Below the pieces are notes generated by a model, which had not been told where the DNA came from, did no database searches, and saw nothing but the letters and a program-made list of their open reading frames with translations. The translations under genes and the position numbers were made by a program. From NCBI GenBank assembly GCA_964016885.1, contig OZ024743.1, positions 188,790,001 through 188,854,000 on the forward strand: DNA of 64,000 bases. The letters run 5' to 3'. This DNA is from Eledone cirrhosa. Its lineage: Eukaryota. This document shows, piece after piece, positions 13,871 through 60,460 of this stretch. The stretch's first letter is position 1; each line of letters begins with the position of its first letter.

Positions 13871-15242
13871 TAGTAGAATAATCGAGTATCGAAAAATCGG
13901 CGCACGAGTTCACGATAAACAAAATTCGATATGAGCGGCAGAGGGCTCAATAATTCAGATAAATCAGAGCTATAACTATCGTTAAAATACCGTCACACAT
14001 AGAACAGGTCTATAATCAACCGTACGACCGAAAGATTGCGATCTGGAAGATTCGGGACATTCAGAAAAAAATATCAAAATATCAATAAATCAAATAAATG
14101 TAAAAAGCATACCCGGACCCGCTAGAAAGATGGTAAATCTAGCTTCTTGGGTTTCTGTAAATCCTTAAACTGCCCTCTATCAGCTCACATAAAAATATAT
14201 GAGACTTCTAGAAGCCAGCGGACAGGAAAATTTACTTCCTCAACGAGCCTTTGTCCGAACGAATGAAAAGGCATAACCCAGGCTGAAGGAACGCACATGT
14301 AATTCAGCAAGGGAGATAACCTCTACATCCGCAAAAAATATTCGGGAAAATGTGGAAATACACATATCGAATAAGAGTGCTCAATAGACATGTTAAAATA
14401 AACAGGAGCTATTCATCATTTAATAGAATCGACAAAAAATGAACAATAAAATTAACTGGTCAATAGCTTTGTCTAGAGCTAAAAATAGTAGAATAATCGA
14501 GTATCGAAAAATCGACGCACGAGTTCACGATAAACAAAATTCGATATGAGCGGCAGAGGGCTCAATAATTCAGATAAATCAGAGCTATAACTATCGTTAA
14601 AATACCGTCACACATAGAACAAGTCTATAATCAACCGTACGACCGAAAGATTGCGATCTGGAAGATTCGGGACATTCAGAAAAAAATATCAAAATATCAA
14701 TAAATCAAATAAATGTAAAAAGCATACCCGGACCCGCTAGAAAGATGGTAAATCTAGCTTCTTGGGTTTCTGTAAATCCTTAAACTGCCCTCTATCAGCT
14801 CACATAAAAATATATGAGACTTCTAGAAGCCAGCGGACAGGAAAATTTACTTCCTCAACGAGCTTTTGTCCGAACGAATGAAAAGGCATAACCCAGGCTG
14901 AAGGAACGCACATGTAATTCAGCAAGGGAGATAACCTCTACATCCGCAAAAAATATTCGGGAAAATGTGGAAATACACATATCGAATAAGAGTGCTCAAT
15001 AGACTTGTTAAAATAAACAGGAGCTATTCATCATTTAATAGAATCGACAAAAAATGAACAATAAAATTAACTGGTCAATAGCTTTGTCTAGAGCTAAAAA
15101 TAGTAGAATAATCGAGTATCGAAAAATCGGCGCACGAGTTCACGATAAACAAAATTCGATATGAGCGGCAGAGGGCTCAATAATTCAGATAAATCAGAGC
15201 TATAACTATCGTTAAAATACCGTCACACATAGAACAAGTCTA
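13871..15242 (-). repeat. 615-bp non-coding tandem unit, about 2.2 near-identical copies, within (TA)n
   Basis: Unit starts (tagtagaataatcgag) at 13871, 14486 and 15101; no ORF of 60 aa or more; strand inferred from the tail hairpin. Confidence 0.95.
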
Positions 15243-15890
15243 TATATATATATATATATATATATATATATAGAACAAGTCTATATATATATATATATAT
15301 ATATATATATATATATATATATATATATATATATATATATATATATATATATATATATATATATATATAAATATATATATATATATATATATATATATAT
15401 ATATATATATATATATATATATATATATATATATATATATATATATATACATATATTTATATATAAATATATATATATACAATATTGAAAAAGTGAAGAA
15501 TAACATGGTCAACAGTACAAAAAAGGGGATTTATTTACAGTCTAACAATTGTTTCTCTGATTAAGCCATCTGCCAAACCTCTTGTTGAGTCAAGCAACGC
15601 CGTAAGCTAGAACTATCCATTATAAGAAGTATTCACAACCTCTAACTGGATTACCTATAACAATATTTTGTTATCCCTTATATATATATACATATATATG
15701 TATATAAATGTATATATTTATATATAAATATATATATATATTGTTATACTTTGGGAGGGTCATGTTGCCAATAAGAAACACACGCACCAGTTGTTTCACT
15801 TCAATTTATTATAATAAATTTATAAATTTAGGAATTTATAAATTTCTGGTTGGTTGGTTGGTTCCACAACCAGATAGTTGTTTATATATT

Positions 15891-15933
15891 GTCAAAGTTC
15901 TTTCGTCACCCATTCTGTGACCTCTTCAGTGAC
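15891..15933 (-). ncRNA. Type I hammerhead ribozyme in the PLE pseudo-LTR
   Basis: gtca CTGAAGA g gtcac agaatgg gtgac GAAA gaac TT tgac; copies at 19874-19916 (-), 20489-20531 (+, core mutated to CGGAAGA) and 27758-27800 (+). Confidence 0.8.
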
Positions 15934-16136
15934 TGGGGATTCTTTTCTTTGTTTTTGTGCCTCTCCTTTGTTCTGTCCTACGCCATTTTGTTTCTGTGTG
16001 TGTGTTGTGTGCTCAGTCTGCGCATGCGCCACATCCGGGTGTCTGTTTGTGTTTATGTTCATTTATTTATTTGTTTATTTACATGTTACTGGTTGGTTGT
16101 TTGTTCTATGTGTGTATGTGTGTTTTCATTTTGTCC

Positions 16137-58910: not shown

Positions 58911-59639
58911 TATATATATACATGTATGTATATATATATATATATATATATATATATATATATATATATATATATATATATACATGTATGTATATATATA
59001 AATATACATGTATGTATATATATATATATATATATATATATATATATATATATACATGTATGTATATATATATATACATGTATGTATATATATAAATATA
59101 TATATATATACACATGTATATACATATATATATACATATGTATATATATATACAGGTATGTATATATATATATATATATATATATATATATATATATATA
59201 TACACATTTATATATATATATACATCTGTTTGTATATATATACATGTTTGTATTATATATATATATACACGTTTGTGAATATATATATATATATATATAT
59301 ACATGTTTGTATATATATACATGTATATATATATATATACATGTATATATATATATATATATAAATGTATTTATATATATATACATACATCTATATATAT
59401 ATATACATACATGTATATATATGTATACATGTATGTATATATATATATATACATATATATATACATATATATATATATACATATATATATATACATATAT
59501 ACATATACACATATATACATACATATATATATATATACATTTATGTATATATATATATATACATATACATATCTATTTATTCATTTATTTGCTCTTTATT
59601 TATCTTTTTCTTTATCCTTTATCTTTTCTTCTCCCTCCT

Positions 59640-59812
59640 TTTCTCTTCTTTCTCTTTTTTTTCTGTTTTTTTTCTATATATGTTTTTCTTTTTTTCTTTT
59701 TTTCTTTTTTTCTTTTTTTCTTTTTTTCTTTTTTTCTTTTTTTTTCTTTTTTCTTTTTTTCTTTTTTTCTTTTTTTCTTTTTTTCTTTTTTTCTTTTTTC
59801 CTTTTCGTTTTT
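59640..59812. repeat. Pyrimidine-rich T6-8C simple repeat
   Basis: Repeated tttttttc / ttttttc units. Confidence 0.9.
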
Positions 59813-60073
59813 TCTCTCTCACTTTCTTTATTAATGATGTTGTAATTTGAATTCGTAGACATTGAGTATCTTTTTAACAGATTTTATCAGTTCTTCTGAG
59901 GATCTGGTTAAGCTAACAACGTTTTTAAAATTGAGTAGCACAGCTCCAAGTGTTCAGCAATTTTTAGACAACTTAATCAGTTAAATAATTTTTAAGACTG
60001 TAAATAAAACCCTTTTTTGTACTCTTGACCATGTTATTCTTCACTCTTTCAATATATATACATATATATCTTT

Positions 60074-60460
60074 CAATATTCAATGATATTAAATAAATGG
60101 AAACTATATTTATGAAATCATATTTATTCTATTATATATATTTCAAGGGAACGAGAACTTTGGTACACTTTAATCAGATAAAATACAAAGTTTGTTTTAT
60201 AAATTTTGACATAATCAAGAAAGGATACCTTAACGGTTCAAGATTTCCTTTGTATTTTGTCCGATGAAAGCGTACCAAAGTTCTGGTACCCTTGAAATAT
60301 ATATAATAGAATAAATATGGTTTTATAAATATAGTTTCTATTTATTTAATATCATTGAATATTATACTCCAGAAAAGCTGTCGAGGGCTCTGAATCAGTT
60401 ATAAACATTTATATTTGTTGAAGTACCAACAAATTGAATATCCCTTTTGTTTATCTTTCA
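60074..60460. mobile_element. Fold-back hammerhead element (family of 6673)
   Basis: Inverted arms; + strand core tattttgt CCGATGA aagcgtacca..tggtaccctt GAAA tatata TA atagaata at 60253-60313; tail hairpin at 60365-60387. Confidence 0.82.

Follow-up and report, generated by a model that had tools for sequence, protein, structure and literature searches.

Paired bulged hairpins at the copy ends of Hydra-clade Penelope-like elements in Eledone cirrhosa, a probable start signal for reverse transcription

A 64,000-nucleotide window of the Eledone cirrhosa genome (assembly GCA_964016885.1, contig OZ024743.1, positions 188,790,001 to 188,854,000) was analyzed for a small bulged hairpin that recurs near the ends of retroelement copies. 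The surrounding genome is 3.0 Gb in size and AT-rich, and the window is rich in (TA)n arrays and retroelement fragments, with a repeat content that appears cephalopod-like. An earlier interpretation of the window, made from the letters alone and hereafter called the sequence-only reading, had described eight such hairpins as one fold shared by the 3′ tails of otherwise dissimilar elements. The hairpin is one of two copies of a motif that Penelope-like elements (PLEs) of the Hydra clade carry between hammerhead and start codon, and element copies end just upstream of either one; it appears to be a real RNA signal within a known clade that has apparently not been described. The first and second hairpins are referred to as HP1 and HP2, and the points just 5′ of them as site 1 and site 2. 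Families are named after the position of their hairpin in the window, loci are cited by L number, and published sources are cited throughout from the portions available.

Eight hairpins in the window

The motif reads 5′-R-CUC-[variable stem-loop]-U-N-GAG-Y-N-CU-3′. All eight hairpin strings are present where they had been placed, minus-strand sites being given by their low-end coordinate (table 1). Three departures had been passed over. An A.G closes the outer stem of the 60365 hairpin, the window copy of the 26247 hairpin has CACTT, against CACTC in the majority of its family, and the 51224 hairpin has a single inner-stem mismatch. A strict hairpin rule returned nine matches, six of them located 25–90 nt before a (TA)n run, compared with a mean of 0.23 and a maximum of 2 in 100 shuffles. 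Five of these six are among the eight sites and the sixth (26108) looks like a chance match; the rule missed 60365, 26247, and 51224. A covariance model trained on 32 metagenome hairpins recovered seven of the eight sites among 21 matches with E up to 10 (four within the top six, three weak, 51224 missed). A scan against Rfam gave 107 matches at E up to 1, none of which is a family match to the hairpins at the eight sites and nearly all of which are microRNA models on microsatellites or palindromes.

Table 1. Features of the window that are associated with the hairpin motif (ORF, open reading frame)
Feature	Position	Strand	Remarks
HP1, Hydra family continuing spacer, HP2, ATG, ORF	50951..50977	+	Continuation in L231, L249, L258, L259
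Inverted two-ended insertion in (TA)n	50633..51035	.	Left arm ends at site 1, right arm at site 2
Type-I hammerhead motif, predicted (CTGATGA...GAAA, palindromic stem III)	50847..50900	+	Pattern scan
Inverted hammerhead copy, predicted, core	50729	-	Pattern scan
HP1 with long loop	51224..51269	+	Family traced to L073 and L104
Inverted two-ended insertion, 51224 family	51053..51307	.	165-bp palindrome and tail
Longer two-ended insertion, 51224 family	3974..6509	.	Site 1 left, site 2 right
HP1 with mutated outer pair	60365..60387	+	Family continues HP2, ATG, Hydra ORF
Surroundings of 60365 element			Hammerhead core 60261; inverted arm from about 60075; (TA)n 60462
HP1	58648..58689	-	Family continues HP2, ATG, Hydra ORF (L238, L240, L247)
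Surroundings of 58648 element			Hammerhead core 58790; (TA)n 58540-58597
HP1	28803..28824	-	Near relative L289 sits before Hydra ORF start; HP2 not seen in L289 copy
HP1, abundant family	28639..28666	+	No hammerhead core seen
HP1 with one change in window copy	26247..26268	-	Inverted arms stop at HP1 start
HP1 in terminal unit of 615-bp non-coding tandem	13945..13970	-	Identical copies 14560-14585, 15175-15200
Degenerate HP2 (GACC for GAGC) of 615-bp tandem	14454..14488	-	Repeated 15069-15103; 12-13 bits, weak
Third motif copy in 615-bp tandem	14375-14418, 14990-15033	-	12-13 bits, weak
60365-related copy	6690..6868	-	Long hammerhead arm ending just before HP1, ~21-nt inverted tail piece (by eye)

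The carriers are Hydra-clade elements

The first link to the Hydra clade came from a neighbor in locus L072, where the 51224 family runs into an ORF. A whole element of this family in L073, with a unit of about 3.2 kb, consists of (TA)n, an inverted arm, a pseudo-long terminal repeat (pLTR) with the hairpin, a second hairpin, an ATG, an ORF for a reverse transcriptase (RT) with a GIY-YIG endonuclease, a 3′ pLTR with the hairpin, and (TA)n; Hydra-clade elements are generally under 3 kb. The single ORF encodes ~710 amino acids (709 in the intact copy in L104). The protein carries RW(K/R) near the N-terminus (RWK in L200 and L222, RWR in L104; R37 and W38 at least 90% conserved in the alignment), DKT in place of DKG (SDKTGNLY in L104; D115 and K116 invariant, T117 at least 90%), and a CxCX5C linker (C564, C566, and C572 invariant) before a C-terminal GIY-YIG domain (Y585 and Y598-G600 present) that in L104 has no CCHH, there being no cysteine pair between Y585 and Y598-G600. 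A Pfam scan did not detect the domains of the protein, and a folded model of the protein (pLDDT 90.6) has telomerase RTs as its top structural matches (E 2.5e-8, TM 0.32). The Hydra clade has been described as having a single ORF with RW(K/R), DKT, the CxCX5C linker plus GIY-YIG at the C-terminus, a hammerhead in the pLTR, a (TA)n target, an inverted 5′-truncated arm, and a one-sided tail (Craig et al. 2021, PMC8557442). Because RW(K/R), DKT, CxCX5C, and the missing CCHH match this definition, the carriers are, judged by their motifs, Hydra-clade PLEs, and the hammerhead, the (TA)n target and the layout of arm and tail are also the same as published.

The hairpin copies often have an inverted, 5′-truncated partner, a hallmark of PLEs (PMC8557442), and (TA)n is the insertion target. 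A hammerhead is predicted in the pLTR, with a long stem in the 26247 family and a variant core in the 51224 family; none was seen in the 28639 and 13944 families. The view that the elements have no other similarity does not hold: the position of the hammerhead, the (TA)n target, and the head-to-head arrangement of the arms are common to them, as is the protein family wherever it was traced.

A second hairpin beyond the end of the other families was predicted and then found with a two-hairpin pattern. Of 30 two-hairpin loci, 18 run directly into a Hydra ORF, 6 have no Hydra ORF within 1.5 kb and count as non-coding, 4 are parts of a single satellite, and the last two are a chimera and a truncated copy. 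Autonomous PLEs carry the fold, as the sequence-only reading had proposed to check: both hairpins precede the Hydra ORF by rule in 13/15 ORF-start clusters, many of which were reached through the hairpin itself, and among the clusters reached from the protein side (L107, L201, L221, L288, and L289) both hairpins are present in 4/5 and HP1 only in 1/5.

Four of the window families (50951, 51224, 58648, and 60365) continue with HP1, spacer, HP2, ATG and Hydra ORF and are therefore the 5′-truncated ends of autonomous Hydra elements, and the 28803 family has a close coding relative (L289). The idea of a motif that chiefly serves, in trans, a guild of non-autonomous RNAs without kinship is thus contradicted as the main account. 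Of the eight families, only 13944 (615-bp tandem, no ORF) fits a non-autonomous reading and so, probably, does the 28639 family, where a copy in L350 has a long-loop HP2-like stem followed by a decayed ATG-GAA-TTT-TTC start (by eye, one copy). Searches for HP2 of the 28639 family had given 0, 1, and 1 matches, the single match being the HP1 of a second family.

Some observations on individual families stand apart. By eye, the 51224 family contains a hammerhead-like fold with the variant core CAGAAGA...GAAA, not CUGANGA (window 51152-51175; also L073 and L107); this putative ribozyme occurs in many near-identical copies, and the family is the most abundant one traced. Upstream of the ATG in L201 and L221, the HP2 loop contains a 65–70 nt insert that is related between both families (proteins 70% identical). 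At locus L280 (G000:C1:130881000-130890900), a 1.32-kb non-coding tandem is arranged in both direct and inverted blocks, with a hammerhead, HP1, and HP2 in every unit.

Copies end just upstream of either hairpin

The motif occurs twice, 67–106 nt apart from start to start, between the hammerhead and the ATG (the pLTR-ORF junction), with HP2 located 35–112 nt before the ATG. A total of 197 junctions with (TA)n were placed on 18 references, 77 at site 1, 112 at site 2 and 8 elsewhere, after 852 of 1,049 junction calls had been dropped because reference L274 contained a microsatellite. The last matching base lies at −9 to −2 of the hairpin in 162 of the 197 junctions, copy and target most often overlap by 3 nt, and TAT or ATA is found at −9 to −3 before the hairpin in 62/84 cases compared with a background of 23%. 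In other hosts, 9/12 junctions agree. Exact junction matches of the 51224 family across the genome are close to equal at the two sites (13,445 at site 1 and 12,643 at site 2), with 45 junctions at the TATATA in the HP1 loop and 0 at the TATAT after HP2 as controls.

As the junctions fall just 5′ of HP1 or HP2, the hairpin of the sequence-only reading is HP1, which the copies retain because their synthesis started upstream of HP2. The copies join (TA)n a few nucleotides 5′ of a hairpin, so that the directing hairpin itself is not copied; in the insertion at 50633..51035, for example, the right arm ends just 5′ of HP2, and in the 615-bp tandem the degenerate HP2 begins 5 nt past the (TA)n junction of the terminal unit. 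The distance of 40–75 nt that had been claimed between hairpin and (TA)n was measured as 38–74 nt and is secondary: the end is set by the uncopied second hairpin, and the distance corresponds to the spacer between HP1 and HP2.

Two-ended inverted insertions pair site 1 with site 2 in 37/40 cases, and 1-1 or 2-2 pairs make up 2/40. In 8 of the 37, the site-2 arm stops within −28 to +36 of HP1 while the site-1 arm runs further, and in three of these eight (L034, L321, and L260) the site-2 arm never reaches site 1; two of ten rows with a longer site-1 arm (L105 and L256) had been set aside as likely alignment artefacts. The class in which both arms end at the same point (20/37) is unreliable, references L249 and L288 being 5′-truncated. 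In the 50951 family (L011, L002, L036, L028, and window 50790), both arms often stop about 60–75 nt upstream of the hammerhead core, which suggests a fixed 5′ end of the RNA in a sample that was partly query-selected.

Two further arrangements of the ends were noted. Loci L232-L235 (G000:C1 near 14.24 Mb) form a satellite of ~58-bp units, each consisting of one hairpin and the spacer of an L288-like family. In L322 and L239, ends of one hairpin family directly abut the HP1 of a different family, the join lying at the usual junction point; nested insertion and template jumping are candidate explanations.

The inner stem covaries

With the bulge left free, T+N was found in 79/81 hairpins (TT 52, TC 18, TA 9), in agreement with the proposed bulge of T plus A, C, or T. 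The first inner pair is paired in 98% with a 2-nt bulge compared with 1, 1, 14, and 30% for bulges of 0, 1, 3, and 4 nt. The covariation proposed for the inner stem was also borne out: in a set of 86 hairpins that had been called irrespective of pairing, inner pairs 1–4 are paired in 97/70/80/64% compared with 75/42/40/40% in shuffled controls. Double-change cells number 44 against 14.2 expected (0/500 shuffles), more than in every slid register, a control that keeps relatedness in. Inner pair 1 of HP1 is Watson-Crick in 47/47; on a quick tree of 54 proteins it shows six changes on each side, six of pair type, switching between T-A and C-G six times with both sides changing each time. G.U (25) exceeds A.C (8), so that the sense strand is favored. 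The possibility that two RNAs pair with each other through the GAG-NN-CTC 3′ arm was discarded, as the common GAGCACTC form does not pair.

Abundance in the genome and presence in relatives

Genome-wide, the pattern TACTC-N8-30-TNGAGTGCT has 31,887 + 31,471 matches (63,358), whereas the reversed-pattern control has 417 + 418 (835). Both distances that the sequence-only reading had asked about are recurrent: among the first 30 genome matches, a hammerhead core lies 102–111 nt upstream in 18/30 and (TA)n lies 36–76 nt downstream in 25/30. The two-hairpin pattern has 1,801 matches against 17 in the control, and its version for the 60365 group 308 against 0.

Relatives at about 40% identity were collected from metagenomes and genome bins (92 loci, near-duplicates included). 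The motif is present in 45/62 usable 5′ flanks and 27/50 post-hammerhead flanks, compared with 2 and 4 on the opposite strand, 0 for the reversed pattern, and shuffle means of 0.95 and 0.3. In the published Hydra consensi, inspected by eye in the available supplement of PMC8557442, it is clear in 3/6 (coral and two sea cucumber), degenerate in 1 and unclear in 2; the Hydra-1_Ajap consensus carries it twice before the ATG. No relatives were found among the viral contigs searched. Loci L185-L199 are Hydra elements in 15 contigs of bacterial genome bins, several of them from animal-associated samples, and are probably host contamination.

A model of programmed twin priming

In the favored explanation, to which we assign a probability of roughly two in three, each hairpin holds the RT-endonuclease and positions priming just upstream, and twin priming on one RNA produces the inverted one-tailed insertion; the motif would, with the same confidence, be a cis-acting start signal of Hydra-clade PLEs. 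Each hairpin would bind one RT-GIY-YIG protein, giving two proteins per RNA, and the bound protein would nick one (TA)n strand, pair the primer end with the UAU upstream of the hairpin, and start reverse transcription there. Two starts on one RNA would yield head-to-head arms once the two cDNAs are joined, and the site-2 arm would carry HP1 and the spacer, the “tail” of PLEs. At most one hairpin remains in a solo end, which confines the full signal to tandem copies and copies of the pLTR-ORF junction, and non-coding tandems that keep both hairpins could be moved in trans. The proposal of a conserved RNA signal for RT recognition or priming used in trans stands insofar as the motif is conserved, covarying, single-stranded, and tied to the start of copying, and is not supported with respect to a trans guild as the main user.

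Comparable starts have been reported for PAc, a Poseidon element of Anolis carolinensis, where RT starts internally at two sites that bound the tail, both strands undergo cutting and extension, the reaction depends on RNA 3′ of the start, and a dimer is predicted by the authors (Frangieh et al. 2024, PMC11167929). The two systems share the two internal starts that bound the tail, the two-strand activity, and the need for RNA 3′ of the start. PAc differs in belonging to another clade and in starting inside the ORF in an “AC-rich stem loop”, and a binding motif is not identified in the available portion of the source.

Several observations weigh against the model. The part given to the protein is inferred throughout, and the PAc start is reported to be non-homologous to the cut DNA (PMC11167929), unlike the TAT overlap of the Hydra junctions. 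The outer CUC/GAG never varies, so that its pairing is not supported by covariation and could be read as sequence; no covariation is found at inner pair 5 or at HP2 pair 4, and the tree test comprises five independent pairs, all concordant (p = 0.0625), and cannot reach p < 0.05. Isolated hairpins are marginally stable (minimum free energy fold as proposed in 4/8 and nearly so in a fifth, z +0.6 to −2.2), which would be expected if a protein stabilizes them. Under the first rule, 17/62 5′ flanks and 23/50 3′ flanks of the relatives give no motif call, and the metagenome loci are not all independent. HP2 of the 26247 family had no match in dedicated searches and seven further loci were uninformative, while for the 28639 family one of two later copies (L350) was informative. 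Nine of the 40 two-ended insertions came from a site-2 query (8 of 9 being 1-2 pairs), many short insertions are near-perfect palindromes that fold-back also explains, and unequal arms could come from later deletion.

One unlikely alternative is that the ends are made at the DNA stage, where the site-2 cDNA folds back and the second strand stops at HP1, or the endonuclease (EN) cuts a DNA intermediate beside each hairpin. This would agree with the palindromic short insertions, with the fact that G.T pairs form in DNA too, with the view that the tail results from EN-mediated resolution (Craig et al. 2021, PMC8557442), and with the reading of junction palindromes as self-priming (Arkhipova 2013, PMC3846280), whereas PAc makes both starts in vitro from RNA (PMC11167929). 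Fold-back requires the site-1 arm to lie inside the site-2 arm and fails in the 8/37 insertions with a longer site-1 arm, including L034, L321, and L260, which twin priming on one RNA predicts and fold-back can produce only with a later deletion. The same motif after site 2 is also left unexplained.

It is less probable still that the hairpins direct cutting of the RNA a few nucleotides upstream, whether by the protein of the element, a nuclease of the host, or a small ribozyme, followed by priming at the 3′ end. The ends do lie at a fixed distance from a conserved RNA structure, and in other retroelements hepatitis delta virus-like ribozymes cleave immediately 5′ of their own sequence. However, if one RNA were cut at both sites, site-2 arms would be broken off at site 1, through which most of them run, and two separate RNAs should make 1-1 and 2-2 pairs common (seen in 2/40); no Rfam match was found at the sites.

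The trans guild, in which small non-autonomous RNAs of separate origin would share the signal, is very improbable: non-coding carriers exist (the 615-bp tandem, the 1.32-kb tandem L280, and the 6/30 two-hairpin loci) and animal retrozymes have been argued to be PLE derivatives (10.64898/2026.07.22.740005), but a Hydra ORF follows in 18/30 two-hairpin loci, and coding elements are the source of four of the eight window families. Equally remote is a role of the hairpins in translation, packaging, or stability near the ATG, or mere descent, with ends set by AU-rich microhomology alone; HP2 does lie 35–112 nt before the ATG and all traced carriers belong to one clade, but the longer TA matches receive 45 and 0 junctions against about 13,000 per true site, and ends follow the hairpin position while the spacing varies from 67 to 106 nt.

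A more specific version of the twin-priming model, in which two ~25-nt bulged hairpins each position the RT-endonuclease and a 3-base primer-alignment site in a telomerase-like manner, has about an even chance of being correct. If true, no RT-recognition RNA element would have been defined in a PLE before this one; it would explain why insertions have a tail and inverted arms and why tandem copies are needed, and other PLE clades would perhaps use paired signals of their own. The choice of start sites and the inverted one-tailed insertions of PLEs, the sister group of telomerase, are a long-standing puzzle, on which a short clade-wide motif with exact predicted start sites would bear in a form testable with few mutants in an existing assay. 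It would also serve as a rule by which Hydra ends can be annotated and the non-coding tandems that Hydra elements can move be recognized. One family alone has over 13,000 insertions in the Eledone cirrhosa genome.

Relation to known systems

In twin priming of L1, two nicked strands prime on one RNA, which results in an inversion, and one cDNA can stop at the other primer. The second L1 site is found by chance complementarity and the arms do not overlap, whereas the Hydra sites are fixed by a repeated structure and the arms usually overlap. In the epsilon element of hepadnaviruses, the 3′ untranslated region of R2, and the template-boundary elements of telomerase, the RT binds an RNA structure that brings the template into the active site; the best structural matches of the Hydra protein model are telomerase RTs. 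Epsilon uses its own bulge as template and a protein as primer, R2 starts at the 3′ end of its RNA, and telomerase elements mark where copying stops, while the Hydra hairpin lies 3′ of the start, is uncopied, and occurs twice. No common sequence is claimed.

The tail of published Hydra elements is 30–40 bp and ascribed to EN-mediated resolution (PMC8557442), compared with 67–106 nt bounded by two motif copies in this study, and the available portions of that paper name no hairpin; some of the published consensi carry the motif. Short non-coding tandems known as non-LTR (long terminal repeat) retrozymes have been argued to derive from PLE pLTRs (PMC7229834; 10.64898/2026.07.22.740005), and no recognition signal is named in the available portions of these sources. 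Their layout resembles the 615-bp and 1.32-kb tandems. The L280 tandem fits it with its non-coding units and type-I hammerhead; in the 615-bp unit, no canonical hammerhead core was found, unlike in retrozymes, and the coding families do not fit the retrozyme definition. The paired hairpin is unnamed in the available portions of PMC11167929, PMC8557442, PMC4209133, PMC7229834, PMC3846280, and 10.64898/2026.07.22.740005, and the sequence-only reading, which knew of no description, is matched by the literature searched, subscription papers and image figures being outside its reach.

Other Penelope-like elements and repeats

A search with GIY-YIG returned Neptune-type elements, and these were rejected as carriers: the motif is present at the 3′ end in 0/29 loci (CX2-5CxxC linker; 23,948 bases), and the covariance model gave weak matches, mostly in the endonuclease, and one strong match in an adjoining Hydra insertion. 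In Naiad and Chlamys consensi, of which portions were available, 11/16 word matches occurred and none follows an RCTC stem with a TN bulge (by eye, with line-split words and GAGTGCT variants unsearched). The ends of the Neptune-type elements in L043, L048, L054, and L070 consist of a (TA)n run, a ~37-nt piece, and a second (TA)n run.

The window also contains two PLEs of other clades. The first (16228-19778, minus strand) has a CX4CxxC linker and a hammerhead CTGAAGA...GAAA, with ends at 15738-16140, 19815-20685, and 27091-28000. Two of its (TA)n ends, separated by 60 nt, account for 15 and 6 of 25 junctions and each lie at AATAT-CG close to the ORF start; no Hydra hairpin was found at either end, and these ends are a candidate for a different paired signal. 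The second (56834-57972, minus strand) is a broken RT-endonuclease that adjoins a mariner-type fragment (57973-58518, minus strand), and no link to the 58648 hairpin beside it was found. Finally, tRNA-like matches at 26898-26957 (minus strand, 30.5 bits) and 2218-2281 (plus strand, 27.7 bits) lie inside a high-copy ~370-bp repeat that is probably a tRNA-derived short interspersed nuclear element.

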